Shown: one piece after another, positions 18,300 to 43,256 of the stretch
Position numbering within the stretch: the first letter of the stretch is position 1
How the letters are laid out: each line of letters opens with the position of its first letter
DNA from: a virus
Taxonomy: Duplodnaviria; Caudoviricetes
IMG/VR virus record: IMGVR_UViG_3300020582_000008
Span: 287 to 64,286 of that record
Length of the DNA stretch: 64,000 nucleotides
Reading direction: 5' to 3' (one strand)
Notes under the pieces: model-generated
What the model saw: the letters and a program-made list of their open reading frames with translations, nothing else
The model's database searches: none
What the model was told of the DNA's origin: nothing
Position numbers and translations under genes: made by a program

Positions 18300-19613
18300 A
18301 TGAAATTCCTTTCTCGCTTCCGTGTTGCGGCGCTCTGCGCTTTGGGTTGTGTGTTCCTGGCGATGGTTGGGACTATCGGGCCGGTACAGCGCGCCGTCAG
18401 TCAAGGGATGGCGCAGATCATAAATCTCGCGGGCACTGAGCAAATATCGCTCGGTTATCCTTGCACGGTCTCGTGTTTTGTCACCAGCGCAACACTGGCA
18501 AATTACTCACAGGCGACGCCCGGTGGTAATGCCGAGAATGCTTTGGTCGGTGGGGACGCCACCACAAATTTGTTCCAACGCGGTTCGTCCGTTGTGCTCG
18601 CGACCCCCGCGGCTGTTGCTTACACGGCGGATCGCTGGGTGGCATGGGGTGGCACGAATACGCCAGTGACGGTGGCGAGCGCGACCGATGCGCCCCAGAA
18701 TTACGGCAAGAGTTTCAAGGTCACGAAAGCATCCGGTGCGGGCGTTGTCCAAGTCTGTGTTGGACAGGAGATTACGACCCAGAATAGCTATCGCTTTCAA
18801 GGATTGGCGACTGAATTTGACTTTCACGCGAAAGCGCTTGCGGGGTTTTCGGCGGCTTCCAAGAATCTTGCGGTTTATGTAATCACGGGAACGGGAACCG
18901 ATGAAGGAACTGCCAACGGCGCATTCAGCATCAACGCGGGCGGCGGTTCTTCGACTCCGTGGACAGGTCCGGTCGTGGCCGGGGGCACCACGGGCTATCT
19001 GATTCCGATCACTACGACGTGGGCCAGATATGGCGTCGTCGTGCCGATTCCGGCGACCTCAACCGAAATCATGGTGGCGATCTGCTATACGCCGGTAGGA
19101 ACCGGAGGTTCTACGGACGGCTTTGAATTTACCGGAGCGCAAGTTGTTCCGAATGCGAGCCTTACGTCGGTTGCCGGGACTGCCGGCGCGATCTTGGGAG
19201 TCAACGATACGCGCGCCAAGGCTTTCTTACGCCGGGCAGCGAGCGAAGAGAGGCTGTTGCAGTTAACGTACTATTATCAGTTGAACGATCCGGCGGCGAC
19301 GGCTTCGGTCGGGACGTGCCAGGTTATTACGGCGAATTCCGCTGCCGTGTGCCTCGTGCCGTTGCCGGTTACGATGCGCGCCGCGCCGACGATCACTGCT
19401 CCCGGCTCGAATACGGCCTTTGCGATCACGGCGGCGAACGGTGCTGCGAACGTCTGTACGGCGCTTGCAGTGACAACGAGTTCGACCGTTCCACAGCCGG
19501 GCGGGATGATTTCGGTGACATGCACGCCGACATCGAACATTGCGATTACCGTTCCATCGCAATTGATCGGCGATGCGCAGGCGTTCAATATCAATGCGTC
19601 GGCGGAATTGTGA
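18300..19613 (+). CDS. beta-rich decoration/fibre-like protein with N-terminal signal peptide
   Basis: QRG...YTADRW and YYQL...PVTMRAAPTI motifs seen in phage fibres; hydrophobic leader. Confidence 0.65.
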   Translation: MKFLSRFRVAALCALGCVFLAMVGTIGPVQRAVSQGMAQIINLAGTEQISLGYPCTVSCFVTSATLANYSQATPGGNAENALVGGDATTNLFQRGSSVVLATPAAVAYTADRWVAWGGTNTPVTVASATDAPQNYGKSFKVTKASGAGVVQVCVGQEITTQNSYRFQGLATEFDFHAKALAGFSAASKNLAVYVITGTGTDEGTANGAFSINAGGGSSTPWTGPVVAGGTTGYLIPITTTWARYGVVVPIPATSTEIMVAICYTPVGTGGSTDGFEFTGAQVVPNASLTSVAGTAGAILGVNDTRAKAFLRRAASEERLLQLTYYYQLNDPAATASVGTCQVITANSAAVCLVPLPVTMRAAPTITAPGSNTAFAITAANGAANVCTALAVTTSSTVPQPGGMISVTCTPTSNIAITVPSQLIGDAQAFNINASAEL

Positions 19614-19645
19614 GCGTTAAGCGAAAGCATTGGAGCGATAGCGCC

Positions 19646-20536
19646 ATGCGCAGGATTTTGTTTGCTGGGCTCGGGCTCTTGCTTAGCGTTTTGCCTGTTG
19701 TTGCGCAAAACACTACGGGGCTTGTCGTAACGACCTGCGGCACTGTCCCCACGGCATTTAAAGCCACAAATCCAGGGCCATTCACCGTTGATGTAAATGG
19801 TAACCTGTGTACGGGCGCAACGTTCACACCAAGCGGCACGCAGAACGTCAATCTCACACAAATTCTTGGCGCCGCACCGAGCCTGACAAATCCCCTATGG
19901 GTCTTTCCCGCGACCGGTGCGACGTTTCCGGTAAGCGGGACATTTTGGCCTTACACGCTGGGCCAGCAACTTGCGGCTGCTTCTGTGCCTGTGGTGCTGA
20001 CCGCGGCGCAGCTTTCCACCTTGACACCGCCGCCTGCGATCACCGGCTTTGCACTTGATACCTCAGTCGCCACGACCAACACTGATCTGGGACCTCCCGG
20101 CGCGACGGCGTGCGCGACCGATACCGGATCGTGCTCGCTCAACGCGCTGCTGCAACGCATTGCGCAGCGGATTTCCACCGCGCTCGGTGGCACTACCGTC
20201 AGCGGGACCGTGACCGCCAACGGTGCGGCGAATGTTACCGCGACGGATTGCTCCGGTACAATTACGTCGGGCGGTGGCGCTCAAAATGCCTTCACGGCGC
20301 AGACGACGTTGCATGGCTTTACCATCGCCAACATCGATACGACTGAGCCGCTGTGGATTTCATTCACGACAACGGCTGCGGCGTCCGGCGCGGGCAGCTA
20401 TCCGCTGCCCGCCGCGACCGCGACGACCTTTGCCGGATTTGGCTCGTTCACGGCGCCACCGGGCTTCGGCCTCAATCACGCGCTGTCAGTGATCGCGGCG
20501 ACGACCAGCCATAAGTTTACGTGCACGTGGTGGTAG
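19646..20536 (+). CDS. Ala/Thr/Gly-rich fibre-like protein with signal peptide
   Basis: MRRILFAGLGLLLSVLPVVA-Q leader; VDVNGNL motif. Confidence 0.65.
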   Translation: MRRILFAGLGLLLSVLPVVAQNTTGLVVTTCGTVPTAFKATNPGPFTVDVNGNLCTGATFTPSGTQNVNLTQILGAAPSLTNPLWVFPATGATFPVSGTFWPYTLGQQLAAASVPVVLTAAQLSTLTPPPAITGFALDTSVATTNTDLGPPGATACATDTGSCSLNALLQRIAQRISTALGGTTVSGTVTANGAANVTATDCSGTITSGGGAQNAFTAQTTLHGFTIANIDTTEPLWISFTTTAAASGAGSYPLPAATATTFAGFGSFTAPPGFGLNHALSVIAATTSHKFTCTWW

Positions 20537-20538
20537 CC

Positions 20539-21054
20539 ATGGGCCGCTTCAAAAGAACGCTCGCCGCACTTCTGCTGTCATCGTCGCTTGTTTCGCCGAG
20601 TCAAGCGCAGTTCGGCAGCGGTGGTACGATCTCGCCATGCAACGGCGATCTCAATACGTCGTGTCAGGTCACGAATCTTCATACCGGCGTCAATCGAATT
20701 CTCTGCTCGATCCGCGCCGCGAATTTCAACATCACGACAGATCAATCATGTGCGATCCCGGCCTCAGTTACGGCCTGGGTGCCGACCTCGATCATTGTGA
20801 CGAATTGTTCCGGCACGTTCACTCTAGCGGCTGGCGGCGTCTATCCCGCGACGAGCAAAGCCGGAACGGCGCTGGTCGCTGCGGCGCAGGCTTATACGGC
20901 GCTAACCGGCGCGACTGTCGTTTTAGGACTGACGCTCGCGGCCAACATCGCGACGACGCGACAAACCGTTAACTCGGTTTACCTCTCGCTTACGACCGGA
21001 ACGGGCAGTGCGGCGACGTGCGATTTCTATGTCGTCGGGAACGATCTCACATGA
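20539..21054 (+). CDS. beta-rich structural protein with signal peptide
   Basis: MGRFKRTLAALLLSSSLVSPSQA-Q leader. Confidence 0.65.
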   Translation: MGRFKRTLAALLLSSSLVSPSQAQFGSGGTISPCNGDLNTSCQVTNLHTGVNRILCSIRAANFNITTDQSCAIPASVTAWVPTSIIVTNCSGTFTLAAGGVYPATSKAGTALVAAAQAYTALTGATVVLGLTLAANIATTRQTVNSVYLSLTTGTGSAATCDFYVVGNDLT

Positions 21055-21983
21055 TGTGGCGTGTCGCTCTTGCGGTTTGGCTGACGGCGGCACTCTCGCT
21101 GTTCGCGTTCAACGCGCCGCGGGCGCAGTTCAACGGCTGTCAGGCTGGATTTTGTAGTCCGCCATCCTCTGCGGCAGCCGCATATGTTGGCCCCGGCGAC
21201 ATCACGTCAGGCGCCATCGCATTCTATTCCTGTAGTCGAGCTTACAACGCAGCCTATGCAAGCGGCCTTAATGCCGCTTGCGACGTAGTCGATACCGCTA
21301 CAGGTCTTGTCACGGGAACGATGCACTTTCTCTCTACCGGCTTTGTAAACGTCAACGAACTGACCGGCGTTGGGCAAGCCTGCCACGCCGCGTGCAGCGT
21401 CACGAAGATGTACGACCAGACCGGCACCGGCAATCATGTGGTACAGGCGACGCTCGCCAATATGCCGGCGCTGACGTTCAATGCACAGAATGGATTGCCG
21501 TGCGCGGCGGGTGGAGCGAATAGTCCGCGCTTAGTCACAGCCGGAAATATAACGCAAGCCGCACCATTTACGATGACAGCAGTAACCGAGCGCGGTAGCG
21601 GATTTACGACTCTTCAAAATATACAAAACAATGGAAATCTTAACATCCTTCGGTTTCCGGCGGTGGCAAATCAGGTAAGCGCTGTGTCTGGGACAGCCAG
21701 TACATTAACTGCAACTGATAGTGCTTTTCATGCGTTGCTGGCGGTGGTTAGCGCGACAGCCCCTTTATTTGCTGCCGATAGCAGCGCAAACACAAGCACA
21801 GCAACGTTTGGAACCTCTGCAATGGCCTCTACCGAAGCTATTGTCGGAAGGTCTGGCGGTCAGGGGCCAATACTTGCTGGTGGTTTCGTCTGCGAAGCCG
21901 GTATCTGGCCCGCCGATCTCAACTCATCCTATCAAGCCATGCTCGCCAATATGCGCAGCGCGACCAATGGGTGGAATTTCTAG
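21051..21983 (+). CDS. LamG/arabinofuranosidase-B-like head-fibre or receptor-binding protein with signal peptide
   Basis: AIAFYS..RAY and VTKMYDQTGTGNH motifs; hydrophobic leader ending PRA-Q. Confidence 0.6.
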   Translation: MMWRVALAVWLTAALSLFAFNAPRAQFNGCQAGFCSPPSSAAAAYVGPGDITSGAIAFYSCSRAYNAAYASGLNAACDVVDTATGLVTGTMHFLSTGFVNVNELTGVGQACHAACSVTKMYDQTGTGNHVVQATLANMPALTFNAQNGLPCAAGGANSPRLVTAGNITQAAPFTMTAVTERGSGFTTLQNIQNNGNLNILRFPAVANQVSAVSGTASTLTATDSAFHALLAVVSATAPLFAADSSANTSTATFGTSAMASTEAIVGRSGGQGPILAGGFVCEAGIWPADLNSSYQAMLANMRSATNGWNF

Positions 21984-21985
21984 CA

Positions 21986-22174
21986 ATGCCATGGAAATCC
22001 GGCAAAGCCTTCGCCTCGAAGCACAACAAGAAACTGAAAGGTGAAGCCGCAACCACGGCGAAGAATCAAGCCGAGGCGATGATTAAAAAAGGGATTCCCG
22101 AGGGAGAAGCCATCGCGACAGCGAATAAAACGGGGAATCGAATTGAAGCCCGACAAAAACGCTGGTATGGATAA
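21986..22174 (+). CDS. small basic protein (MPW... family) ending RWYG
   Basis: MPW start, GIPEGEAIATA; TAATG coupling. Confidence 0.65.
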   Translation: MPWKSGKAFASKHNKKLKGEAATTAKNQAEAMIKKGIPEGEAIATANKTGNRIEARQKRWYG

Positions 22175-22440
22175 TGGCCTCGTTAACGCTCGCCGACATG
22201 GCAAGACGGATGGTGCCGGGAGCTAAGGCCGTGGCGAAGAAACACTGGATCAAGGGCGCGATCAAACATCCCGGCAGAGAGACGCGCCGCGCCAAGGAAC
22301 ATGGCGTCTCTACCCACGAGCAGATGGAAAGCGACAGCCACAGCAAGAACAAGTCGCTCGCCGCCGCCGGCCGCCTCGGGCTGGCGTTATCGGCGAAAAG
22401 CAAGAAACCCCGCGGCGAACGCTGGTATGGAAAGGACTGA
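22174..22440 (+). CDS. small basic protein with a capsid-like N-terminus and RWYG tail
   Basis: 14 of the first 18 residues match the MCP; WIKGAIKHPG motif. Confidence 0.7.
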   Translation: MASLTLADMARRMVPGAKAVAKKHWIKGAIKHPGRETRRAKEHGVSTHEQMESDSHSKNKSLAAAGRLGLALSAKSKKPRGERWYGKD

Positions 22441-22442
22441 AA

Positions 22443-22730
22443 ATGGCCGAACGCAAATGGTACGGCAAAGAGGGCGGCGGCGGGGAAGGGACTCACGAAC
22501 GCCATTCCCGCGAGCGCAAGGAAATGCACACGCGGCATTCCAAGATGCGCGATGCGCTCCACAAGCAGCACGAGGACGAGATTGGCCAGATGGCCGAACG
22601 GCAGTCTCAGGAGGCGGCGACCGAGAATCAAGGAGCGCAGGCGCCGGCTGCCGCAGCGGCTCCCGCAGCAGCGGCGCCAGCGGGTCAGGGAGCCGCTGCG
22701 GCAGCAACCGGCGCAGGGGCGCCAGCATGA
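22443..22730 (+). CDS. small His/Ala-rich protein with N-terminal KWYG
   Basis: AAGGA RBS. Confidence 0.65.
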   Translation: MAERKWYGKEGGGGEGTHERHSRERKEMHTRHSKMRDALHKQHEDEIGQMAERQSQEAATENQGAQAPAAAAAPAAAAPAGQGAAAAATGAGAPA

Positions 22731-22737
22731 AATCCAG

Positions 22738-22862
22738 CCTGATTTCAGTTCCTCCCTGTTCGGCCGGCGGCCCGCAGGATACACACGCGCCCGATGCCGG
22801 CGCTGAAATCAGGTGAGGGGCAACCCTCGGTCATGACGAACGCTTAATCGGGCGAAGCCGCC
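22738..22862 (+). ncRNA. candidate structured cis RNA upstream of the staple gene
   Basis: 11-bp perfect stem 22738-48/22803-13, GCAA-loop hairpin, two crossing helices. Confidence 0.5.
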
Positions 22863-22886
22863 ACTTATTCGGAAAGGAAGATCGCG

Positions 22887-23282
22887 ATGGCAAGGTTTTC
22901 GGCGATGATCGACATGGCGAAGGACATCAGCGAAGTCAAAAAGGAAACGGCGCAGATGACCGCGCCGATGCCTGCGGATGCCAAGCCATCGGTCCCGGTC
23001 TATCCCTATGGCCTCTGTATCAGCCTCGAAGATGAGCAGCTTGAAAAGCTCGGCCTCGACGGCGAACTTCCTTCGGTCGGCGACATGCTCCACATCGCGG
23101 GCATGGCCAAGGTCACATCGGCTTCCGAGAACGAGCGCGAAATGAGCGACGGCAGCAAACAGAAATGCCGCCGGATCGAATTGCAATTCACACATCTGGC
23201 AACCGAAAATGAGGACGAAGAAGGCGAACAGGAAGCGCGCCGCTCCCGCTTCTATGGATCGACCGACACCAAGGCCGCGTGA
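22887..23282 (+). CDS. capsid staple protein (epsilon15 gp10-like)
   Basis: YPYGLCISL..EQLEKLGL...LPSVGD...ELQFT motif. Confidence 0.8.
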   Translation: MARFSAMIDMAKDISEVKKETAQMTAPMPADAKPSVPVYPYGLCISLEDEQLEKLGLDGELPSVGDMLHIAGMAKVTSASENEREMSDGSKQKCRRIELQFTHLATENEDEEGEQEARRSRFYGSTDTKAA

Positions 23283-23339
23283 ACCAAAGGTACGACCGCG
23301 CGTTAACCTAAATCCCAATCCGATTCCAGGAGGAATCAA

Positions 23340-23969
23340 ATGCCGCAGAGAATCCGCCTACTCACTTCCGCACAGATCAACGGGCACGTTTACGGTCCCG
23401 GCGAAGTCGTCACGCTGCCCGACGGCGTTCGTGGTCCTCATCGTTCCGTGTCCGTTGCGGGTGTACTCCAAGACGAACCGATGTTCGTTCCGGTCGATGA
23501 AGGATTGGAGAAAGAGCGCGAGGACATGCGCTTGCGGCATCTGGCCGAAGTGGAAGCCCTCGATCATACCGCCGAGCGTCGCGAACTGGCGATCAAACAC
23601 GCCAAGGAATCATCCGATCTTCGTCGCAAGCAATTGGCGAGTGAGACCGAGGCGCGGCACAAGGTCGAAGCTGAGACGTTGCAGCGCCGGCAGGAGGCCG
23701 AAGTCGTCGCCTTCGACAAACGCGCCGAAGTTCTGGCGACCGTCAATCCGCCGTCCGAGACCAACAAGGACGATCTTGCGGCGCGGCACAAGGCGGAAGC
23801 CGAGGCACTGAAAGTCAAGCAGGAGAGTGAGCAGAAGGCGATTGAAGCCGCAAACGCGGAGCCTGTCGAGGATGAGCCGGTAGAGGCGCAGCCGGAAGAT
23901 GATGCCGCGCCTCTGATGCCGCCGCCGGATTATCCGCCGCCGCCAAGTCAACCGAGCAATCCGGCGTAA
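23340..23969 (+). CDS. coiled-coil protein with RH..E repeats
   Basis: AGGAGG RBS; repeated ARHKxEAE. Confidence 0.7.
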   Translation: MPQRIRLLTSAQINGHVYGPGEVVTLPDGVRGPHRSVSVAGVLQDEPMFVPVDEGLEKEREDMRLRHLAEVEALDHTAERRELAIKHAKESSDLRRKQLASETEARHKVEAETLQRRQEAEVVAFDKRAEVLATVNPPSETNKDDLAARHKAEAEALKVKQESEQKAIEAANAEPVEDEPVEAQPEDDAAPLMPPPDYPPPPSQPSNPA

Positions 23970-24005
23970 TGCTCTTGGCGATGACGATGCGGCGGGAGGC
24001 GGCGG

Positions 24006-28773: not shown

Positions 28774-28777
28774 GCAA

Positions 28778-28836
28778 TTGGTTAGACTGGCTACCTTGGC
28801 GTGCGATTATTCTGTGAGAGTCTTACGGCCATAGAG
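28778..28836 (+). repeat. 59-bp element copy 5 (solo, left-type)
   Basis: ttggttagactggctaccttggcgtgcgattattctgtgagagtcttacggccatagag, followed by gattgagaaaaaagatc-ATG. Confidence 0.95.
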
Positions 28837-28853
28837 GATTGAGAAAAAAGATC

Positions 28854-29378: not shown

Positions 29379-29380
29379 CC

Positions 29381-29824: not shown

Positions 29825-29827
29825 GTC

Positions 29828-35000: not shown

Positions 35001-38000
35001 GTATGCGGATAAAACAAACGTAACTAAAGCCGCTCTCGAAATTGCCGAACCACCCACTCAATCAAAACCGTTTGTATTCGATAATCCAGAACTTGAGGCT
35101 CGGTATCATGCCTGGAAGGCCGCGAGAGAGACTGAGAAAGATGAGGCTTGGAAGGAATTCTACCAGCGGAAAAATCTCATAGAAGAACGCGAGGCCGAAG
35201 GACAGCAGCAGGTTCCCGGTGCCGAGAGAATCGGCGATGCCGAACGAGTGCAGCGCGCGGCTGACCAGCCGTTGAAGCCCAAAGCCGAACAGAAGCCTAT
35301 GGATGAAGGGTTGTTTGGTGACGAAAAAGACCAGCAAGAACTATTCCAACAAGCGCGCGGCGGCATCGTCCTAAACCCCAACGCTGTCCCCGGCCACGAC
35401 TACATCGGCATGGAGAACGTCAGACCTCTAATGAGATTGACCGCAGAGGCCAACGCCTCGACATTCTTTCACGAATCCGGCCACCAATATCTAGCGGAAC
35501 TCGTCCGGGATGCTGCCCACGAAGCCGCACCCGCAGACCTCAAGGCGGACGCGCAGACCGTCATGGATTGGCTCGGACTGAAAGGGCCACAGGACTTAGC
35601 CCTAGGCTCCGATGCCTCACGAGCGGCCAAAATCAAGGCAACCAAGGCCCATGAGAAATTCGCCAGGGGATTCGAGCAATATCTGAGGGAAGGCATCGCC
35701 CCCTCTCAACAGCTTGCCGGGGTGTTTGCCAAGTTCAAGCAGTGGATGCTCAATATCTACCAGACGATCAAAGGCTTAGGCGCCCCGATCAGTGACAATA
35801 TTCGGGGCGTTTTCGACCGGATGTTGGCCGAACAGCCTCAAAGGACGGTGATTGCACCTGAGATTGCCAAAAGGCCGGATTTGCAGGATATTCATGAGTC
35901 GGACGCTGTTCTGACCGAGCCGCATGAAGCGGAGCGGGCGGGAGACCGCGTTCAAGCCGAAGATGCTAGAGCCAGAGCAGAACTGCCCAAGGACATAGCG
36001 GATGAGCATCGAGGAAGTGCAGAGAAAATTGGAACTAGCCCAAGCGAACCAATCCCATTGGGAGAAAATCGCGGCGGACCCGACACTATCGGTCCAGGCG
36101 GCGCTGGCAGCGCGGAACTCGGCACGGAGCCACAAGGCGGCAGTCACATTGTACCGCAAGGCGCTGGGCTACGAACACGAGAAGGCGGCGCCGGCACAAT
36201 AGAGCCGCTTCCTATCGGCCCTCATGTTCCGCTGGATGCTTTGCCAGCAGAGAAGATGGATAAGGTCGGAAATATCCGGCTGGAAAATCTCAATACGCCG
36301 GCCGATGTCAATAATGCCATCCGAGATTTGTATAACTCCAATCGCGAGCAATTAGACACAGCCACTCGCGGCGTTGTCTCAGATCAAACAGTCATGGACT
36401 TGGCCGATGCTATGGGCGCCGATCCGCGCGTCGTTGCCAATAACATGGAGCGCCTTCGCCAAATGTCGGTAGAGGACGGCGTTCCTCTCGCCGCGCGCAT
36501 TTGGTTGATGCGCGATATGTTTACAAAGCTCAGTGCCGAAGTTGCAAACTTGGCGCAGGGCGACGACGTAGCCGCCTTTGCGTCGGCTCGGCAAAGATTT
36601 TTGATGGCCTTCGAAACGTTGTCCGGTGTCACGGCGGAAATGGGCCGCGGAATGCGTGCGTTCCGCAACATGAAAACCCAGATGGCGAGTGCCATCGAAA
36701 TGGCCAACATCTTAAGAGACGATCCAAAAACTCTGTTTCAGCTTAAGCAGCAAATGGCGTTGGCGCGGGCTGCTGAGACGCCTGCGCAAAGCGCGGCTGA
36801 GATACAGCGATCAAATAGAACGCCGTGGCAGAGGATTCGGGCTGGGGTGATTTCCTACGTCATCAATAATCTGATTTCTGGTCCGATCACGCACGTCATG
36901 TACTCGGTCGGCAACGATGTTCTGCAACTCTTTAAGGCGTTGCCGGAAACCGCCGCCGCGAGCTTGGCTGGCCGCGTGTTGGTTGCGACAGGAAAGATCA
37001 GTGAAGAAGATCGTATCCGCATGGGAGAGGCTGGGCCGCGGCTTTACGGCATGGTCTACGGCGCTCGGGATGGTTTGTCGGCGTCCTATAGCGCGCTCAA
37101 AACAGGCGTGTCGGTGATGAAGGGCGATCCTTCCGGTATTGATCTATTCTCGAATGAGATTGCCTATCGGCCGCAGGAAATTCCCGGCACGGTTGGGTAT
37201 GTCCTGGAAACGCCGTCGCGGTCGGTTGCGGCGATTCATACGATGCATTACGGCATGAACTACGAATCTGAGATTGCGGCGCTGGGATACCGCGATGCGA
37301 TAAAACAAGGATTCGATCTCGGAACCGACGAATTCAACAGCCACGTCGCCGACTTTCGTATGAATCCGCCGCGCGACGCGATGGACATTGCCCATCAAAA
37401 TGCCTTGGAAATGGTGCTCATGCGCAGACCTCCTTACGGTGGTCTGCAAAACTGGATTCAGAATCTAACAAACAAGTATGTGCTTGCTAAACTGGTTGCG
37501 CCGTTTGTCCAGATAGGAGGCAACATTCTTCGCGGCGGCTTCATCGAGCGCACGCCGCTTGGCCTCATGGATCAGACGGTAAGGGATAATCTGCTCGGCC
37601 GAAACGGAGCATTCAAACAGCAAGAGCAATATGGACGGATGATGGTCGGAAGCACTCTGGCCGTCTCAACCATCGGACTCGCGGCGCAAGGCATCCTCAC
37701 GGGCGGCGGTCCTTCCGATCCCAAACAGCGCGAAGTCATGGAAATGACGGGTTGGAAGCCCTACAGCATCAAAGTTGAAGGCGAATATATCCCATACCGC
37801 AAATATCTTTCGGTCTATGGGCCGTTAGTTGCCGGCGCGGCGGATATGTACGAAGTCGGGCACGCCATGAGTGAGAAAGGATTGGCGCAAGGCGCCGCTG
37901 CTCTCTCGTTCGGATTTGCGGAAGTGGTTGCCGATGAAACATGGATGCGCGGGATTACATCGTTGATCGATGCCGCGCGGCATTGGGACCGCGACGGCGC

Positions 38001-38544
38001 CAAGTACATTCGCAATCTGTCAACCGAATTTATCCCGTTCTCAATCGGAATGCGCCAGATCGCTTCGTTGGCCGATCCAACGTGGCGCAGCGTACGCTCG
38101 GAAATGGATGCGTTGCGCGCTCACATCCCCGGCCTAAGTCAAAGTCTCTTTCCTGTCCGCGACCTGTGGGGCCAGCCGATGCGCGGCGGCTCCATGATGT
38201 CATGGTCCCCCGCCGTAAACGATCCAGCAACAATCGCGCTACAAAAAGCCGAATACTACCCGGCGCGACCGGAGCGAAAGATTCGCGGCGTCGAATTGAC
38301 CGATCAACAATACGACGATTTCACGCGAATCGCCGGACGCGACGCCAAGATGCGAATTAATGCGATGATCTCAAATCCGGGCTTCGATCTTATCCCCAAG
38401 CAAATCCGCCAGGAACAGTTGAAAAACGCTATGGAGGGTGGGCGAGATATGGCGCGAACGGTGATCTTGATGCAGTATCCCGAAATTATGAAACAGGCGC
38501 TCGCCACCAAGCAACTGCCCTTCCAAAGCACGGTTGCCCACTGA
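32044..38544 (+). CDS. large ejection / polyvalent internal virion protein
   Basis: About 2166 aa; STFFHESGH...HEKFARGFEQYLREG zincin-like module; C-terminal LTGGGPSDP...GWKPYSIK. Confidence 0.85.
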   Translation: MQDVQPQQPAAAPAPQDVDALFPEKGGAQDVDSLFPASVEADRKAKNYGVSHSPVQDLIFGDKTVNPVARILDSFGQGFEQGWGTDRLGLSDESTDYLKKIGIFNDYQKGQSSLVKTANEVLLRPAAVALDAVIRRGLPGMFRGGQAVVQQLGEEVGAPNIAREIAALPEAFPTGLHGPVSGVPIPGLGLSEAYRNSPGLIETARQMRVIGAGERGWAGTAPVEAPKGEPVKIETAPQPVAGKSEQPSPMTPPPAAVTPSPEDIAPDIHTAARQAAPDVFARYDTLKQQQDGLQKWLTEREAQGQPEPGVKAYLDGVNKELDELSPQVKAAYQQAAETTNAATVPPPVSQSWGMFPPPEVTGAPAKIDATHTVLSGANSTADGTVVVDHNIPEFSPTLKDKDGNPANLHKYLVVHETAESEAMAKWKAEFIAREGRVPTQEETTKYYNDVAHPKIATPAERAAVEADGVSWPGYTHEMDGYLDRIEHEPNTNPPPGQMHIDPEAAIGHHKSENKPTVAPEQVIKPIEAQRDFIVNDVKHQLIAAGRSEAEAQAAGQLVAARYEARAVRLGGARGSAEELYKAEGAQIRGPGGPAEPPTVAPAPTAAPVPLAERAPAEQWNAFVAARAERTSRAVIETGYNALTTKLGAPIHLRRSQEWTPGNVVDVGFVKDLLITSKNSDGTFTLIAKPDANGISKSYNAEAHKGLVGDKPVSFKEATAPLLEATKPAEEIPESEITTIHVAPKAARGPRAVPQEHWSLLQFIADRGGIKADDKNIGDVRTIFGKDQKWIPGFGPLIRKDGMELDRAREAAVEAGYIQDHGQSGVSTGEATSNIDTLLQAMDREERGTKVYRQGVEPQEARERVPDAAELEQHRAEQAELDSRIADYLQEVGIKRNEIEPSIAARMRELMDRQRLEPDIAHERAVMEADDHAVETENAPERAEYIPGWDVPDDTRTAQGAGEATPKGEEAAPGAGPRTDRDGDREAYADKTNVTKAALEIAEPPTQSKPFVFDNPELEARYHAWKAARETEKDEAWKEFYQRKNLIEEREAEGQQQVPGAERIGDAERVQRAADQPLKPKAEQKPMDEGLFGDEKDQQELFQQARGGIVLNPNAVPGHDYIGMENVRPLMRLTAEANASTFFHESGHQYLAELVRDAAHEAAPADLKADAQTVMDWLGLKGPQDLALGSDASRAAKIKATKAHEKFARGFEQYLREGIAPSQQLAGVFAKFKQWMLNIYQTIKGLGAPISDNIRGVFDRMLAEQPQRTVIAPEIAKRPDLQDIHESDAVLTEPHEAERAGDRVQAEDARARAELPKDIADEHRGSAEKIGTSPSEPIPLGENRGGPDTIGPGGAGSAELGTEPQGGSHIVPQGAGLRTREGGAGTIEPLPIGPHVPLDALPAEKMDKVGNIRLENLNTPADVNNAIRDLYNSNREQLDTATRGVVSDQTVMDLADAMGADPRVVANNMERLRQMSVEDGVPLAARIWLMRDMFTKLSAEVANLAQGDDVAAFASARQRFLMAFETLSGVTAEMGRGMRAFRNMKTQMASAIEMANILRDDPKTLFQLKQQMALARAAETPAQSAAEIQRSNRTPWQRIRAGVISYVINNLISGPITHVMYSVGNDVLQLFKALPETAAASLAGRVLVATGKISEEDRIRMGEAGPRLYGMVYGARDGLSASYSALKTGVSVMKGDPSGIDLFSNEIAYRPQEIPGTVGYVLETPSRSVAAIHTMHYGMNYESEIAALGYRDAIKQGFDLGTDEFNSHVADFRMNPPRDAMDIAHQNALEMVLMRRPPYGGLQNWIQNLTNKYVLAKLVAPFVQIGGNILRGGFIERTPLGLMDQTVRDNLLGRNGAFKQQEQYGRMMVGSTLAVSTIGLAAQGILTGGGPSDPKQREVMEMTGWKPYSIKVEGEYIPYRKYLSVYGPLVAGAADMYEVGHAMSEKGLAQGAAALSFGFAEVVADETWMRGITSLIDAARHWDRDGAKYIRNLSTEFIPFSIGMRQIASLADPTWRSVRSEMDALRAHIPGLSQSLFPVRDLWGQPMRGGSMMSWSPAVNDPATIALQKAEYYPARPERKIRGVELTDQQYDDFTRIAGRDAKMRINAMISNPGFDLIPKQIRQEQLKNAMEGGRDMARTVILMQYPEIMKQALATKQLPFQSTVAH
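34889..35023 (+). CDS. candidate overprinted small ORF
   Basis: Amphipathic basic peptide in an alternative frame where the host frame is low-complexity. Confidence 0.4.
   Translation: MYLMTPEQHRARAKQLLKAKKPHLALAHEQIATAIEKRMRIKQT
36002..36202 (+). CDS. candidate overprinted small ORF
   Basis: AAGGA RBS; helical 66-aa peptide in an alternative frame. Confidence 0.5.
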   Translation: MSIEEVQRKLELAQANQSHWEKIAADPTLSVQAALAARNSARSHKAAVTLYRKALGYEHEKAAPAQ

Positions 38545-38701
38545 TGGCTGAAATCCGCCCGCCAATCACGCCGAGGAATGCACCAGCGAAGGCGCGGCCG
38601 AGAGTGCGCCCGCTGCGGAAGGTGAAGGCGCCGTTTCTGCCGACTGAGAAACATCCGCATGGTTGGCTTGCTCATCATCGGATGAAGGCTGAGACCACCA
38701 A

Positions 38702-40693
38702 ATGAAAAAAGCCGCACGCCTCCTACTCGCATTCCTCGGCCTTCTCATTTTAGGTGAGGTCGTCGATCTGGCCTGGCTCGGCTACGTGCGTGCAACGGTC
38801 ACGAGCGCGCAATCGTCCGTGGTCATCGGCGGCAACGGCTCGATCACGAATTTCACGTTCCCGTTTATAGGCGTCGCCTCCAACGATATTACGGTGATCT
38901 ATACCGATGCGTCGGGCAATCAAACGACGCTCACGCCGAACACGCAGTACACGCTTACGCTTATTGCTCCGCTCCCAGGAGCAATCTGGGGTCTCGGCGG
39001 CTCGGTCACGTACCCTCTCATTGGTTCTCCCATTGCCTCGGGGACGACGATCACCATCGCGCGGACGCTGCCCTATCTGCAAACCATAAGCTCGAATCAG
39101 GGGCAGGCGTTCCCGACTGCGGTTGAGGCGGCGCTTGATCTTCTGGCGATGCAGATTCAACAGGTAGATGCACTGTTTGGGCGCGGCATTGTGATTCCCG
39201 TGGTCGATAGTTGCGGGACTCTTGCGCCGCTTCCGGCCGCAGCGCAGCGCGCGAACCAAGCATTGGGCTTCGATGCCACCGGCTGCATTCCGGTGGCGAT
39301 TTCGACGCTGCCGGCCGGTACGGTGTCGTCTGCAATGCAGCCGGTGGTCAATGCACCGACGCTTGCGGCAGCGCGAACAGACTTGGGACTCGGCAGCGCG
39401 GCGACCGAAAATATTGGCTCCTATGGTCTAGCCGACGACGGCGGCGGAAATCTGAGACAAACTTTTACAACCGTTTCAGATTCGGGCTCACAAAGCGTCA
39501 CGTCGGCATTCCAACTCAACCAAAGAATCTGCGCGGGGCCGATCACCTATACGCTACCACGAGCAAATACGCTGTGGAACGGTTTCGGATTTTGGATTTA
39601 TGCGGTCTCCGGTATCTGCACGATCACGCCGAATGCAAGCGATAACTTTCCAGGTGTTGCTTCCGGGACATCGATTACGATTGCCGCAGGCTCGTGGATT
39701 TGGATAACCACCAACGCAGCCTCGACCGGAACGTGGTGGTTGGATGCTCATGGGTCGTCGAACGGAACGTTGGCTGCGACTGCGAGCGGTAATGCACTGA
39801 CGATCACCTATTCGGGCGGCCCGGTGCGCTTCCGCGATAACACGTTGGCCAACGGTGATTCGCTGTGGGCTGTTCCGCAAGGTGCCTTGGGCATCACCAT
39901 TCCGCAGGGCGCGACCCTCGGCACGTCAAGCAGCAACGTGCCATTTCGTATCTGGATTTTTGCAGCCTACAATGGTGGAACGCCGATCTTGGGAGTTGCT
40001 ACCTGTTCGTCCTCAACCCAACTTTATCCGTGCAAGGCTTGGACGACGCAGCGCAAGACCGGAGTTGGAATTACGGCTGGGTCAACCGCTCTTGGCACTC
40101 TCTACACATCGGCTGCGGATTCAAACGACAGTATCATCATCTTGGGTTACGCCGACTATGCGTCAGGGCTTGGGACGGCAGGCACTTACGCTTCCGCGCC
40201 CACGACATTGCAGCCGTTCATAGCCGGCGTTCCAGGGCCGGGTGAAATCGTGCAACGTATTGAGCCGGCGCCGATCACTACGACGACATCCTGTCAAACG
40301 ACAAATACACAAAGTACCATCACGGCCGCGATCACGCCAACAAGTTCGCCGAATCTCGTCCGCGCTACTGCAAACATCGCGGGTACGTCGGGCGCAGCAC
40401 AAACAGGTAATGCGAGATTTTCGCGCGGCACCGTTCCTACGTTGATCGGAATGACCGGCGTTACGGGAGGCGGCGGCATTGCTTCGGGTGGTCTCAATAG
40501 CACTGTCCCGGTCAGAGTCTTGGACGCTCCCGGAACAGCGTCGAGTATAAGTTATTACATCTACTGCACAAGCAACGTGAACGGTGGCTATGTGGCCGGC
40601 ACATCGCTGGGCAGTGATATAGTGCTTGAGGAAATCATGGGGTGGCTTGAACCCGCGAACGACAACACCATTCCTCTAACGAAAGTTGGGTGA
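38702..40693 (+). CDS. tail fibre with T7-like attachment domain, preceded by a signal-like leader
   Basis: TVTS...GNGS...FTFPF, VEAALDLLAMQIQQ, AARTDLGLG. Confidence 0.8.
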   Translation: MKKAARLLLAFLGLLILGEVVDLAWLGYVRATVTSAQSSVVIGGNGSITNFTFPFIGVASNDITVIYTDASGNQTTLTPNTQYTLTLIAPLPGAIWGLGGSVTYPLIGSPIASGTTITIARTLPYLQTISSNQGQAFPTAVEAALDLLAMQIQQVDALFGRGIVIPVVDSCGTLAPLPAAAQRANQALGFDATGCIPVAISTLPAGTVSSAMQPVVNAPTLAAARTDLGLGSAATENIGSYGLADDGGGNLRQTFTTVSDSGSQSVTSAFQLNQRICAGPITYTLPRANTLWNGFGFWIYAVSGICTITPNASDNFPGVASGTSITIAAGSWIWITTNAASTGTWWLDAHGSSNGTLAATASGNALTITYSGGPVRFRDNTLANGDSLWAVPQGALGITIPQGATLGTSSSNVPFRIWIFAAYNGGTPILGVATCSSSTQLYPCKAWTTQRKTGVGITAGSTALGTLYTSAADSNDSIIILGYADYASGLGTAGTYASAPTTLQPFIAGVPGPGEIVQRIEPAPITTTTSCQTTNTQSTITAAITPTSSPNLVRATANIAGTSGAAQTGNARFSRGTVPTLIGMTGVTGGGGIASGGLNSTVPVRVLDAPGTASSISYYIYCTSNVNGGYVAGTSLGSDIVLEEIMGWLEPANDNTIPLTKVG

Positions 40694-41016
40694 CGATGCC
40701 CGAACCGCAGATTCAACAAAATCAGATCATCCCGATTCCAAGTCCAGTCTTTACGTCGGTTGCTCTGACGACGGCAAATAATCCGAATGTCATCGGAACA
40801 AACGCAAACCGCCGCGGCATTACGTTTGGAAACCCATCGGCAACGCAGACGATCTATCTGGCACCAGCCGGAAGTGCGATTACCACCAATCAAGGTCTCC
40901 CGCTGTTTCCCGGCGCCACGCTGCCGATCATGGCACAAGGAAATTTTCAGATCAATTGTGGTTGGCAGGCGATCGCTAGCGGCAACTGCAATCTCACTAT
41001 TCTGGAATTCGTGTGA
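40690..41016 (+). CDS. small beta-rich tail-associated protein
   Basis: NANRRGITFGN motif; coupled to both neighbours. Confidence 0.65.
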   Translation: MTMPEPQIQQNQIIPIPSPVFTSVALTTANNPNVIGTNANRRGITFGNPSATQTIYLAPAGSAITTNQGLPLFPGATLPIMAQGNFQINCGWQAIASGNCNLTILEFV

Positions 41017-43256
41017 TGAAGAAGATTTTGCTGGCACTGGCGTTTTTGTTTGCTGCGGCAGTTCCTGCGGCGGCGCAAGGGTGCGGACCACAGAATCCGA
41101 ATTGCATTGTGCCGACTGCTCCCGCTGGTACAAACAATAATCAAGCCGCGTCCACACAATTCGTGCAGCAAGCTATTGGCGGCCCCGGCGCCAATCCTGT
41201 CAGCGGCCCGGCAACATCGACCCTTGGCGATGTACCGGCGTATGGCAATGCCACGGGGTCACAAATCACGGACCCTGCCACAATTTCAAGCAATCAAAAT
41301 TTCTACTTTGGTTCTGGTCGCCCTTGGGTCGATGTGCGCGCATGTGGTGCGGTCGGCGACAATAGCACCGACGACACCGCTGCAATCAATACATGCTACA
41401 ATAAGTTGGTCGCCTTCGGGGGCGGTGACCTGTTTTTTCCTCCGACATCGAACGGCGTCTATTGCACTTTCACCGGCCTGAATTTTATTTCCGGCAATAT
41501 CAGACTGCGCGCGGCTGGTGGTGGCTCGTCGATTGCCGATGCCGGGGTCAGTACATGCGGTCACGATGTTACGGCATTGAAGATAAGTGGCAGCTACACC
41601 GTCATCGAAAATCTCACCATTGTTGGCGGTGGCTATGGTACCACGCATCCGGCGCTTGATTTTGCTCCTGGCTGCAATCAGTGCAAGATAACCGGCGGCT
41701 CCGTTGCCGGCGGGACCAATCCAATTTTGCAGGAAGCTGCCGATGTCGTTATCACGAACGTCAGCGTAAGCCCTGGCTATGGTTCCGCGTCAGTCAAAGT
41801 TGTTAGTGGTGCCACCTATCTGATTAGAGACAGCATCGATCTATCTGCGCCAGTCTATACGCTGACCAATGCGAATTTCAGTGGCGGTGCCGCTGGCTGG
41901 GCATCGACCCATGCCTATTCCGGTTCGGTAACTGTCTCTACGCAGGGTTTCTACATTCAGCTTGTGACGGCTAGCTGTACCAGCGGCGGCAGCGCACCGA
42001 CTCTTAAATCATACGGCGTTGCAATAACGGATGGCACTTGCACTTGGCAGTTGATGTCTCCGGGAACCTATTACGCAGTACAGGCAGATACCGGAGCAAG
42101 CGCGCTCTATATGCTGGACGGCGATAGCAGCGGGCCGATGGTTGCTGGATTGGCCATAACAAATACGGGCGCCGGCACCGCGCCTGGCGGTATTGTCGTT
42201 GAAGGTTGGGACTTCGGCGCAAATCTCCAAGCTGGAATTTACGCCCATGACGGCAACACGCTCAGCGTTTCAAAATCGACGATCAATGGCTGCGTATTCG
42301 GCGGTTGCCCAGGTATTTATACGCTGGGGTCTTGGACTGGCGTAGTCAATGCCAATAATAATCTGCTGGCCGGCAATCAAACCGGCGTCAGTCTGAATGT
42401 TGGTGGCGGCGACAGCATCGTCGGAAACACGATTGTCTCAAACGTCACGGGGGTTTTGGTTGCGAACAACTACGCCAATTTCAACATCAACAGCAATAAC
42501 TTTTACAACGCGGCTTATGGTTCCAATTCGGGGAACGATGTTACTATCGGAACCGGAGCAACGCATTGCAACGTCGTCGGCAATAGCAGCAACGGCGGTA
42601 CTTTCAGTACCGGAGCATGCGTTGCCTCTCTCAACGATGGCGCTGGCATTTCTGTAGCCGGTGGCGGAACTGGCCGGGCTACTCTGACTGTTCACAGTTT
42701 TGTCATTGGCGAAGGAACGAGTCCGGTAAATGCAGTGGGGCCGTGCAATTCAAATGTGCCAATCACTGGCGTAAGTTCTAGCGCCGATCCGCAATGTGGC
42801 GGCACTATTGGCTATGCCAACGGCGGCACCAACGCTACGTCACTCGCGGGTGCGCAGGCAAATTTGTTGATTGGGACATTAATGAGCGTCCCGGTTACTG
42901 TGAATTTTGCGGTGGCTGGCGATTATGCGATTGCAGTTCCACTTCCTACTGGATTTACACAATTAAGAGCTGACAATATTGTAATATCGCAGTGTAATGT
43001 ATCGCTTTCTGGCGCCACATTCGGTCTATTCACGGCAATTGGAGGCGGCGGCGCGGCGATCATCACGGCAGGCGCTACTTCGAATGTAACAAACAATACC
43101 GCTAACACAAATAATAATATGCAATTCGGCGCCGGCTCTATCAACAACATCGGTAGCGAGGCATACACGCCGATTGGCGGAAATATCCAATTTCGTGTTG
43201 GTTCAACGGCTGCAGGAACGTGTTCTGTGGCATTTCAATACAAACCTGTGCCATAA
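41016..43256 (+). CDS. tailspike with pectate-lyase-like beta-helix and signal peptide
   Basis: VDVRACGAVGDNSTDDTAAIN...GGDLFFPP; Asn-rich helix repeats; VAGGGTG fibre repeats. Confidence 0.85.
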   Translation: MKKILLALAFLFAAAVPAAAQGCGPQNPNCIVPTAPAGTNNNQAASTQFVQQAIGGPGANPVSGPATSTLGDVPAYGNATGSQITDPATISSNQNFYFGSGRPWVDVRACGAVGDNSTDDTAAINTCYNKLVAFGGGDLFFPPTSNGVYCTFTGLNFISGNIRLRAAGGGSSIADAGVSTCGHDVTALKISGSYTVIENLTIVGGGYGTTHPALDFAPGCNQCKITGGSVAGGTNPILQEAADVVITNVSVSPGYGSASVKVVSGATYLIRDSIDLSAPVYTLTNANFSGGAAGWASTHAYSGSVTVSTQGFYIQLVTASCTSGGSAPTLKSYGVAITDGTCTWQLMSPGTYYAVQADTGASALYMLDGDSSGPMVAGLAITNTGAGTAPGGIVVEGWDFGANLQAGIYAHDGNTLSVSKSTINGCVFGGCPGIYTLGSWTGVVNANNNLLAGNQTGVSLNVGGGDSIVGNTIVSNVTGVLVANNYANFNINSNNFYNAAYGSNSGNDVTIGTGATHCNVVGNSSNGGTFSTGACVASLNDGAGISVAGGGTGRATLTVHSFVIGEGTSPVNAVGPCNSNVPITGVSSSADPQCGGTIGYANGGTNATSLAGAQANLLIGTLMSVPVTVNFAVAGDYAIAVPLPTGFTQLRADNIVISQCNVSLSGATFGLFTAIGGGGAAIITAGATSNVTNNTANTNNNMQFGAGSINNIGSEAYTPIGGNIQFRVGSTAAGTCSVAFQYKPVP

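Follow-up and report, generated by a model that had tools for sequence, protein, structure and literature searches.

Tailed-phage particles are, in the textbook view, wholly assembled in the cytoplasm. Among the systems closest to the locus described here, the leaderless fibres of two cultured podoviruses, the putative tail fibre of Pelagibacter phage HTVC010P and gp18 of Burkholderia phage BcepC6B, show 33–35% identity (tblastn) to the docking domain of our fibre (S5), and the same domain has been solved on the tail for the fibres of Carin-1 (8ck1) and T7 (7ey9). In all of them, as here, the fibre gene follows those for the internal virion proteins; however, their fibres begin with the docking domain, whereas S5 and 77 of its 120 homologs put an apparent Sec leader first and add Cys pairs. 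In Klebsiella podoviruses of the KP32 type, the first receptor-binding protein (RBP) has a T7-like anchor and the second docks by a short conserved N-terminal peptide. Our locus likewise has an anchor-bearing fibre followed by a spike (S6), whose sole conserved part is a short N-module preceding swappable enzymatic bodies, but here both partners carry predicted signal peptides, and it is only a hypothesis that the module docks on the fibre.

Export of phage proteins is known in other settings. The inovirus proteins pIII and pVIII are virion proteins with Sec signal peptides, and pIII forms its disulfides while folding in the periplasm and joins the particle afterwards; inoviruses, however, assemble at and through the membrane, whereas the present phage is tailed, with a cytoplasmic capsid and tail core. 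Exported endolysins, such as the signal-peptide endolysin of Pseudomonas phage UFJF_PfDIW6 (PMC8951688) and the SAR endolysins of the P1 Lyz type (PMC3556154), are also late proteins of tailed phages that use the host Sec pathway before lysis, but they are lysis enzymes, neither structural nor receptor-binding. The bacterium Pantoea stewartii has a trimeric tailspike-like glycanase, WceF, that carries an export signal (PMC7949094) and places a beta-helix tailspike fold outside the cytoplasm, as is inferred for the beta-helix-like S6; WceF, however, is encoded by a cellular gene, has a Tat (folded-export) signal and lacks a virion-docking part. Our search of the literature found no description of Sec leaders on tail fibre or spike parts as seen here.

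The phage genome and its putative host

The window, the whole 64,000 nt stretch analysed (positions 287–64,286 of IMG/VR record IMGVR_UViG_3300020582_000008), represents the complete 64-kb genome of an uncultured short-tailed soil phage (podovirus), assembled as a single 64,286-bp contig. Its structural module is T7/HTVC010P-like, and genes for the portal, protease, capsid, tail A/B and internal virion proteins were identified; profile-based annotation of this genome identified no holin, endolysin or spanin. The core particle proteins (portal, protease, capsid, a Bbp16-like protein, tail tube A and B and internal virion proteins) lack leaders and contain few Cys, and we therefore infer that they are made in the cytoplasm. 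The features of interest are listed in Table 1.

Table 1. Leader-bearing proteins and associated features, in window coordinates; arrows mark predicted cleavage sites.
Feature	Coordinates	Strand	Size	Leader	Predicted cut	Remarks
S1	18300..19613	+	437 aa (preprotein)	18300-18401 (34 aa)	AVS↓Q
S2	19646..20536	+	296 aa (preprotein)	19646-19705 (20 aa)	VVA↓Q
S3	20539..21054	+	171 aa (preprotein)	20539-20607 (23 aa)	SQA↓Q
S4	21051..21983	+	310 aa (preprotein)	21051-21125 (25 aa)	PRA↓Q
S5, tail fibre	38702..40693	+	663 aa	38702-38794 (31 aa)	VRA↓T
S5 tail-docking domain	38795-39196	+	~residues 32-165			PHROG, PDB-profile and fold matches
S5, remainder						Conserved stem to ~residue 350, then variable C-terminal part
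Leaderless protein	40690..41016	+	108 aa	none		Between fibre and spike; phrog_30212 (unknown function)
S6, spike	41016..43256	+	746 aa	41016-41075 (20 aa)	AAA↓Q
S6 N-module	41076-41171	+	32 aa			Invariant, with C-x6-C loop; right-handed beta-helix-like body follows
S7	45294..46112	+	272 aa	present		Not among the original six

The host appears to belong to Pseudomonadota, although we found no direct host link: sequences of relatives are deposited under Pseudomonadota, a proteobacterium and Pseudolabrys, and Shine-Dalgarno-like motifs precede 36–53% of the crude gene starts versus 13–17% of random windows, low use of such motifs being a trait of Bacteroidota. Gln occupies position +1 of the predicted signal peptidase I (SPase I) site in five of the six leader proteins, and most relatives keep it, with exceptions in the relative G002 (Gly in S3 and Asn in S2). 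By sequence, these five proteins fit the Q-rule of Bacteroidota, in which Gln directly follows the SPase I site (PMC5837995).

Six proteins carry conserved leaders of probable Sec type

The earlier note had claimed apparent Sec signal peptides on S1 to S6, and this held. All six start at ATG, and each leader shows a basic n-region, with Lys or Arg within the first eight residues, a hydrophobic core and a small-residue site of the AxA type. A leader test demanding K/R first, then 10 uncharged residues with mean hydropathy ≥2.0 and then small residues at −3 and −1 was positive for 6/6 of these proteins, but only for 1/184 internal-Met pseudo-starts and 49/2500 shuffled N-termini, a chance rate of 0.5–2%; among N-termini of crude gene calls of at least 100 aa, 6 of 50 were positive. 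Homologs, which the earlier note had proposed as a check, also bear leaders: 77/120 for the fibre, 95/97 for proteins sharing the spike module, 72/88 for S1 family members having an N-part and 106 of 120 among the 213 S4 homologs, where the leader was scored as hydrophobic.

Features of the leaders make it likely that they are of the Sec/SPase I type rather than lipoprotein or Tat signals, export and cleavage themselves being inferred. Against a lipoprotein (SPase II) leader, the Cys residues in the h-region of S1 are not conserved among relatives, and the AxA frame of the spike module is fixed on Gln, not on the Cys two residues downstream. Against Tat, the RR pair in S2 and in some fibre leaders is not conserved and those leaders are short.

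The earlier note had also allowed that the true starts might lie downstream, in which case the leaders would be untranslated or mere chance extensions of the reading frames. Some of the genes do have alternative in-frame starts; nevertheless, this artefact is all but excluded by the comparative data. Leaders are kept in kind across hundreds of homologs, and codon differences within them are mainly synonymous (9–11 synonymous versus 2–5 non-synonymous for S5 against close relatives). The ATG of S4 (21051) lies across the stop codon of S3 (20539), as does the ATG of S6 (41016) across that of 40690, so that translational coupling fixes both starts, and the chance rate of the test is low. The comparison thus shows that the leaders are real, translated and selected, and that they are conserved in function, not in sequence.

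The fibre leader ends at the canonical fibre N-terminus

Residues 33–183 of S5 match eight PHROG families of tail, fibre or spike proteins (best E 3.5e-18), and position 1 falls on residue 31 of S5 in four of five PHROG tail-fibre profiles; no Pfam-A family matched the docking domain at E ≤ 0.1. Position 20 of the S5-family profile aligns with residue 1 of the Carin-1/Dpo31 fibre chain (PDB chain 28lx/8ck1, E 3e-29). Fold searches with Foldseek retrieved 8ck1_B (E 7e-9, TMt 0.88, 34% identity), as well as T7 7ey9_a (TMt 0.62) and LME-1 9efk (TMt 0.55). The 77 leader-bearing homologs have leaders of 19–58 aa that all end exactly before the canonical N-terminus T-[VI]-x-[ST], with Thr as its first residue in 73 and Val in 4, whereas 42 leaderless homologs start M-T-[VI] at the very point where the others would be cut. 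The claim that the attachment domain begins exactly after the leader therefore held, on PHROG and PDB-profile alignments as well as on the leaderless homologs. Position −1 is Ala in 73/77 leaders and position −3 is Ala or Val in 68/77, and in 73 of the 74 leaders of up to 36 aa the first eight residues have a net charge of +1 to +3. The precise placement of the cut site at the canonical N-terminus is shown by comparison; cleavage itself is inferred. By the same token, the docking domain is the very N-terminus of finished S5 only if S5 is cut at VRA↓T, where its leaderless relatives start.

Leader state changed at least nine times in the tree of the fibre family, and fibre leaders occur in 8 of the 11 clade genomes, where they fall into at least six sequence types. 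The docking domain has a mean identity of 57% among leader-bearing fibres, 55% among leaderless ones and 53% between classes; this equal conservation with or without a leader favours attachment of the fibre to the virion, although there is no direct evidence. The fibre fold does not depend on export, since 42/120 homologs function with no leader. The S5 leader is itself atypical, since it is 31 aa long and two acidic residues separate its hydrophobic core from the site, and it could possibly be a signal anchor.

An invariant module links the spike leader to unrelated bodies

In 95 of the 97 proteins sharing the S6 N-module, leader and module precede unrelated C-terminal parts (PF12708, PF13884, PF03629 and others). 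The 95 module leaders have Ala at −1 in 89 cases and at −3 in 77. S6 itself matched Pfam NosD only below the cut-off (E 0.0027; 17.6 bits versus 23.6) and had no match among PDB sequences, while its Atlas model (pLDDT 0.70) aligns with PF12708 and Beta_helix clusters (TM 0.44–0.58).

Probable fibre- or lectin-like proteins encoded after the capsid gene

The earlier note had described the six proteins as fibre/decoration-like, and likeness to capsid decoration failed for the four genes following the capsid gene: evidence from folds, profiles and gene order indicates that S1 to S4 are probably fibre- or lectin-like instead. S1 consists of the leader, a short conserved N-module (QGM..L.GTEQI..) and two jelly-roll domains resembling carbohydrate-binding modules (CBM), with a leader kept in 5/5 genome relatives while its h-region diverges. 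Its AF2 model (pLDDT 85) matches CBA120 TSP4 and CBM16/4/22 by Foldseek. S1 itself matches no PHROG family, but 27 of 69 aligned relatives match phrog_4492, 'tail fiber protein' (best E 4.6e-42).

S2 has a conserved N-module (QNTTGLVV..C), a variable middle and a conserved C-terminal domain of ~100 aa, residues 199–294 matching phrog_22789; leader and N-module are kept in G001, G004 (two copies), G006, G007 and G009, and Atlas returned only viral hypothetical clusters. S3, with leader-bearing homologs in G001, G002 and G007 (60–89% identity), always adjoins the C-terminal domain of S2 in relatives. In S4 the leader is followed by QFNGC..GFC and a core starting Y.GPGDI.SGA, and some of its homologs carry PF09206 (arabinofuranosidase B catalytic domain). 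The position of S1 to S4 varies among relatives, and in one of them three lie directly 3′ of the fibre gene.

Cysteine pairs accompany the leaders

That all six proteins contain multiple Cys, as had been noticed, held and can be sharpened. Mature S1 to S6 contain 8, 6, 6, 8, 8 and 18 Cys, all even numbers, with a density of 2.19 per 100 aa versus 0.36 in 15 leaderless virion proteins of the same phage (Fisher p 4e-15). Disulfide-bonded exported proteins reportedly show an even-cysteine bias (Dutton et al., 2008). The count is even in 92 of 95 spike-module proteins (p 7e-24). Leader-bearing fibres average 7.3 Cys, with even counts in 63/77 and none devoid of Cys, whereas the leaderless ones average 2.7 (Mann-Whitney p 5e-10); among the latter the count is even in 19, odd in 17 and zero in 6. 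Six covarying pairs of Cys columns are almost confined to leader-bearing rows (e.g., 30/77 versus 0/42). There are exceptions, as 14/77 leader-bearing fibres have an odd count and 10/77 lack Cys in the conserved region, and a phylogeny-aware test of the association was underpowered (six independent pairs, ~3.6 in the same direction and none opposite, p ~0.125). The association of Cys pairs with leaders is thus shown by comparison, while the disulfides themselves are inferred.

A model of export, and its rivals

We consider Sec export and oxidative folding of S1 to S6, as the earlier note had proposed, to be likely and well supported by comparison, although export and cleavage are inferred from sequence, without any cultured member or proteomics. 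Three lines of comparison support this: leaders of differing sequence recur in four large families of homologs, the predicted fibre cut always falls at the canonical N-terminus, and the number, parity and covarying pairs of Cys track the presence of the leader. In the proposed model, the core particle would be built in the cytoplasm and the peripheral, glycan-directed S1 to S6 would be made as Sec preproteins, passed unfolded across the inner membrane by SecYEG and cut at the AxA site by SPase I, which in the fibre would recreate exactly the N-terminus left in leaderless relatives once Met is removed. The exported proteins would then fold, probably as oligomers, with intramolecular disulfides in the oxidising periplasm, and before lysis they might also act on the surface glycans of the infected cell. 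They would meet the fibreless, cytoplasm-built particles only once holin lesions or lysis merge the compartments, and then dock, the spike and S1 to S4 by their short conserved N-modules. We infer docking at lysis from the full conservation of the tail-docking domain in the fibre; it remains pure inference, and free action is not excluded. For the explanation as a whole, with export, periplasmic folding and docking at lysis, we estimate a probability of ~0.55.

Of the two fates that the earlier note had offered, joining particles at lysis or acting as free adhesins or depolymerases, neither is settled, although conservation of the fibre docking domain favours the former. The main rival, which remains possible, is that the proteins are exported but not part of the virion, being free or envelope-bound lectins and depolymerases that trim or mask the surface glycans of the infected cell, perhaps excluding superinfection or keeping progeny from being trapped on debris, or that loosen the surrounding matrix. 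It is supported by the glycan-directed folds (CBM-like in S1; beta-helix-like in S6, with PF12708, PF03629 and PF13884 among its module-mates; PF09206 in S4 relatives), by bacterial export of tailspike-like enzymes such as WceF and by the variable gene position of S1 to S4. However, a free fibre would need neither a conserved docking domain nor a cut at the exact native N-terminus, and 8 of the 11 genomes have no leaderless fibre gene with which to arm the particle. Short invariant N-modules also precede swapped C-terminal parts, an arrangement that is the mark of parts docking on a conserved partner.

Two pools, with most molecules exported for an envelope role and a cytoplasmic share, from inefficient export or an internal start, arming the particles, seem unlikely. 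An in-frame GTG at 38786 (codon 29 of S5), exactly at the canonical N-terminus, could possibly yield a cytoplasmic form, and a GTG also occurs at the Val after the cut site in G003 and G009; but no Shine-Dalgarno-like motif lies within 20 nt 5′ of 38786, G002 and G004 lack such an internal start, the Cys pairs under selection in lineages with a leader would not be oxidised in the cytoplasm, and clear leaderless spike-module proteins number 0/97. We regard it as very improbable that the leaders are uncleaved signal anchors holding the appendages at the inner membrane, whether to provide an assembly platform or to retain them, SAR-like, until lysis. The fibre leader of the window type does model as one helix (residues 2–25), with a long segment of ~23 residues before the site, and ~15/77 fibre leaders are of this type. 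Nevertheless, most leaders have classic AxA sites and measure only 19–26 aa, which is not long enough to form a stable anchor; Leu, Ile and Phe are abundant in their cores, whereas SAR domains are rich in Gly and Ala; and an uncleaved leader would block the tail-docking N-terminus.

Should RBPs of tailed phages be routinely exported first, there would be an undescribed step of morphogenesis, at or after lysis, involving an oxidising compartment. Host Sec, signal peptidase and Dsb would become phage-dependency factors and possible points of resistance, and such fibres and depolymerases would misfold upon cytoplasmic expression, a concern for enzyme discovery and phage engineering. RBPs would be missed by annotation pipelines that drop signal-peptide proteins as 'not structural'. 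A bolder reading, which could as easily prove wrong as right, is that soil podoviruses of a large and widespread group divide virion construction between two compartments: the DNA-filled particle, still without fibres, would arise in the cytoplasm, while all host-recognition parts would be secreted by Sec, locked by disulfides in the periplasm and snapped on only when lysis unites the two. On this reading, gain or loss of the leader, at least nine times in the one fibre family and always at the same residue, would be a simple evolutionary switch between cytoplasmic and periplasmic fibre maturation. The fibre family, with both states represented, is a natural experiment that makes the question directly testable.

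Other genes near the spike

The leaderless 108-aa protein encoded between fibre and spike is kept in G006, G007 and G009, whereas its counterparts in G001 and G002 are C-terminal domains of larger ORFs. S7, which also bears a leader, had no match in Pfam or PHROG; its leader and the A↓AD start are kept in G002, G006 and G007.

Sec-type leaders on six proteins

The earlier note had reported N-terminal Sec leaders on six proteins of this phage (S1 to S4, the tail fibre S5 and the spike S6; see the table), and this observation held. All six genes have an ATG at the tabulated start, which in two of them is translationally coupled to the stop codon of the gene before, and each product begins with K/R, continues into a hydrophobic core and then reaches a site of small residues. 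A simple leader criterion was positive in all six, but in only 1 of 184 pseudo-starts at internal Met residues and 49 of 2500 N-termini obtained by shuffling those of the phage's own proteins; the leaders are real and far above chance. Initial heuristic signal-peptide scans were noisy, flagging spurious frames and misplacing cut sites, and served for orientation only. The refuting case, that the true starts lie downstream of the leaders, was checked against these starts and against the codons of the fibre leader, which differ from those of close relatives in the window's subclade by 9–11 synonymous and 2–5 non-synonymous changes; this pattern implies that the fibre leader is translated and selected. 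There is an in-frame GTG at codon 29 of the fibre, with no Shine-Dalgarno motif nearby.

Other leader types were considered and rejected. A lipoprotein leader was discarded for the spike (..AQG-C) since its AxA frame is aligned on the Q and not on the Cys two positions further, and for S1, where the Cys within the core is not conserved. A Tat type was rejected for the S2 leader (MRR..) and for some fibre leaders, in which the RR lacks conservation and the leader is short. Nor are the leaders SAR-like, their cores being rich in Leu, Ile and Phe.

Genome context and relatives

The assembly is a single contig of 64,286 bp, of which only the first 286 bases lie outside the window, and a podovirus structural module was recognised in it by PHROG, Pfam and tblastn searches. 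The closest deposited phages are remote (HTVC010P-like, Pseudomonas and Burkholderia podoviruses, with less than 40% identity). IMG/VR relatives were found at 44 loci via the capsid protein and at five via the fibre, several of them being complete genomes of 62–64 kb; ten records (G001–G010) were taken whole for comparison. They share the same architecture, with capsid proteins 54–99% identical and a G+C content of 43–65%, a spread that suggests a broad spectrum of hosts for the clade. S1 and the N-terminal module of the spike had no match by tblastn in 50,697 deposited phage records; the fibre matched 27 records, with all alignments starting at the mature N-terminus (query residue 32 or 43). 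No lysis gene was recognised when the small ORFs downstream of the spike were compared with Pfam and PHROG.

Among the internal-virion genes there is an ORF of 147 aa whose N-terminus is Tat-signal-like (RRSFF, hydrophobic core, VSA) and whose residues 53–145 share 36% identity (E 2e-14) with residues 228–330 of the major capsid protein of the same phage. It seems unique to this genome, since tblastn on the ten relatives matched their capsid genes alone.

Features of the window (positions in nt; modules recognised by PHROG, Pfam and tblastn searches are marked P)
Feature	Position	Strand	Remarks
Portal	10698		P
Protease or scaffold	14970		P
Major capsid protein	15921		P
Bbp16-like protein	16912		P
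S1	18300–19613	+	First mature Gln, codon 18402
S2	19646–20536	+	First mature Gln, codon 19706
S3	20539–21054	+	First mature Gln, codon 20608
S4	21051–21983	+	First mature Gln, codon 21126
S2-S3-S4 cassette	19646–21983	+	
Tail tubular A and B	24006, 24798		P
Internal virion proteins	28237, 28854, 29828, 32041		P; 29828, lysozyme domain; 32041, 2167 aa
ORF, 147 aa	29381–29824	+	
Tail fibre (S5)	38702–40693	+	P
Fibre leader	38702–38794	+	
Small ORF	40690		P
Spike-like protein (S6)	41016–43256	+	P; first mature Gln, codon 41076
S7	45294–46112	+	
IS1-like transposase fragment	55213–56361	-	
ORF, 301 aa	57356–58261	-	

The fibre leader precedes a tail-attachment domain

The claim that a T7-like attachment domain begins exactly after the fibre leader was borne out. 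Position 1 of the PHROG tail-fibre profiles falls on fibre residue 31 in four out of five, and the family profile matches the Carin-1/Dpo31 fibre chain from chain residue 1 (E 3e-29). The AlphaFold model predicts a leader helix (residues 2–25), a low-confidence linker (25–33) and then a beta-sandwich, which superposes on N-domains solved in situ on podovirus tails (8ck1_B, TMt 0.88; T7 7ey9_a, TMt 0.62). Lastly, we retrieved 205 fibre homologs at E ≤ 1e-10 and scored leader state in 120: 77 have a leader of 19–58 residues, 42 start with M-T-[VI] and one is ambiguous. The leaders are alike in form and wholly different in sequence, with A at -1 in 73 of the 77 and A or V at -3 in 68, and the predicted cut always lies immediately N-terminal to T (73) or V (4), which is residue 2 of the leaderless homologs.

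Leader state has changed at least nine times in a FastTree phylogeny of the conserved fibre region. Within the eleven genomes compared, eight fibres have a leader, of at least six sequence types; those of G005 and G008 lack one, and no fibre gene was seen in the 48-kb record of G010.

Leaders are coupled to paired cysteines

As the earlier note had stated, all six proteins contain multiple Cys; the counts in the mature parts (8, 6, 6, 8, 8, and 18) are moreover all even, amounting to 2.19 per 100 residues, compared with 0.36 in fifteen leaderless virion proteins of the phage. The same pattern is seen across the fibre family: leader-bearing mature fibres have a mean of 7.3 Cys, with an even count in 63 of 77 and none without Cys, whereas leaderless fibres have a mean of 2.7 (19 even, 17 odd, 6 without Cys; Mann-Whitney p 5e-10, without phylogenetic correction). 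Six pairs of alignment columns within the conserved N-terminal 320 residues have Cys in both or in neither, and these pairs are almost confined to leader-bearing rows (e.g., 30/77 versus 0/42 and 27/77 versus 1/42). Those used differ between subclades, suggesting that disulfides were repeatedly invented after export. A leaderless row with four Cys, P0015, comes from a 2.6-kb contig and its product begins one residue inside the family, so it is probably truncated. A phylogeny-aware test gave only weak support, as it rested on just six independent pairs (about 3.6 in the same direction and 0 in the opposite; p about 0.125). Comparison shows that leaders are coupled to paired Cys on receptor-binding proteins.

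Spike and fibre-associated proteins

The first 52 residues of the spike are a module present in 97 proteins, of which 95 have a leader of 18–47 residues followed by an almost invariant stretch of 32 residues with a C-x6-C loop; the Cys count is even in 92 of these 95. The C-terminal bodies behind the module are unrelated and include pectate-lyase-like, Peptidase_S74 and SASA domains. The body of the window's spike is predicted to be beta-helix-like (Atlas model, TM 0.44–0.58), with a sub-threshold match to NosD. A complex prediction with three copies each of fibre residues 150–352 and spike residues 21–72 (score 0.00, mark 0.32) gave evidence neither way.

The S1 family comprises 1734 cluster representatives at E ≤ 0.001, and of the 69 members aligned, 27 match phrog_4492, annotated as 'tail fiber protein'. 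The S1 model (pLDDT 85) predicts CBM-like jelly rolls, with CBA120 TSP4, CBM16, CBM4 and CBM22 as best matches. The N-terminal part was present in 88 of 150 members examined; 72 of these 88 have leaders, with even Cys counts in 62, and about 14 clearly lack them. For S4 there are 213 homologs, with a hydrophobic leader in 106 of the 120 examined and an arabinofuranosidase-B catalytic domain in some, and S2 and S3 carry a leader in every relative possessing them. The S2-S3-S4 cassette follows the capsid gene in the window and in G002, G006 and G007; in G001 (38666–44622) the cassette instead comes immediately behind the fibre gene. Its conserved block runs from the C-terminal domain of S2 through S3 to the N-terminus of S4; therefore, the swapped parts are the middle of S2 and the body of S4. 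On the folds and the position of the cassette in G001, S1 to S4 are fibre-associated rather than capsid decoration, and the 'decoration-like' label of the earlier note failed.

A further leader-bearing protein is S7 (272 aa; cut ..A|AD). G006 and G007 retain it downstream of the spike, and leader-bearing proteins similar to it occur in G002 and G008. S7 matched no Pfam or PHROG family; an OmpA/Omp25-like barrel was considered and dropped for want of a Pfam match. Separately, an ORF of 301 aa on the minus strand, also without Pfam or PHROG family, has a signal-peptide-like leader.

Probable export and oxidative folding, and inferred attachment at lysis

The comparisons show that the leaders are real, selected, of the Sec type and borne by receptor-binding proteins. 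The subsequent steps are inferred from established knowledge: the proteins would be translocated by SecYEG and their leaders cleaved by SPase I, a cut that in the fibre would restore the native N-terminus, and a DsbA-type system would oxidize them in the periplasm. Although export, cleavage and disulfides are themselves inferred, the comparative evidence supports well the export and oxidative folding of these host-recognition proteins, as the note had proposed, and we consider them likely. In the open-access literature searched (supplements and subscription journals were outside its scope), we found no account of tailed phages with Sec leaders on their tail fibres or tailspikes.

The fate of the exported proteins is less clear, the note having offered either joining to particles at lysis or a free secreted role. 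We lean toward attachment at lysis, which is unproven and inferred: the fibre would dock on the tail only after holin lesions or lysis had brought the two compartments together. An exported fibre should still dock, since the cut would restore its native N-terminus and the docking domain is equally conserved with and without leader (mean identity 57% among leader-bearing fibres, 55% among leaderless ones and 53% across classes). In T7, T4 and P22, finished particles accept fibres or tailspikes in vitro. No direct test excludes that the leader proteins are instead free secreted enzymes or adhesins, or that they are split between cytoplasmic and periplasmic pools.

It is also not directly excluded that the leaders are uncleaved anchors. 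The leader of the window's fibre is atypical, with 31 residues in all and two acidic ones between core and site, a type shared by about 15 of the 77 fibre leaders (30–32 aa, with a conserved acidic amphipathic stretch, LGE..DLAWL....RA, before the cut). This type might act as a signal anchor or be cleaved in a regulated manner, and, judging from sequence alone, its cleavage is less assured than that of the canonical leaders of 19–26 residues of its relatives.

Host and the residue after the cut

Two scans of genome contigs each yielded one locus: the first on a Pseudomonadota MAG contig, the second a leaderless fibre, 33% identical, on a 1.4-Mb MAG contig of an uncultured proteobacterium. A cluster look-up with nine proteins gave two sources, a Pseudolabrys MAG and a Bathyarchaeia MAG, membership of the latter being probably a binning artefact. 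Neither search provided a direct host link. Shine-Dalgarno-like motifs precede 36–53% of crude gene starts versus 13–17% of random windows and, together with the MAG sources, point to a host in Pseudomonadota rather than Bacteroidota.

Gln occupies the first mature position in five of the six leader proteins and is kept in most relatives; the N-modules of these proteins show no mutual homology. Gln after the cut is the rule in Bacteroidota (mean Q-value 71%), with Q-values typically below 20% in the analysed species of Chlamydiae and Spirochaetes and below 9% in most Chlorobi (PMC5837995); these figures do not include Pseudomonadota. Because the host looks unlike Bacteroidota, the Gln seems to be a trait of the proteins themselves, and an N-terminal pyroglutamate at their docking end is conceivable.

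Elsewhere in the genome, the IS1-like transposase fragment (PF03400, E 2e-7) adjoins the sole phage tRNA gene, tRNA-Val(TAC).
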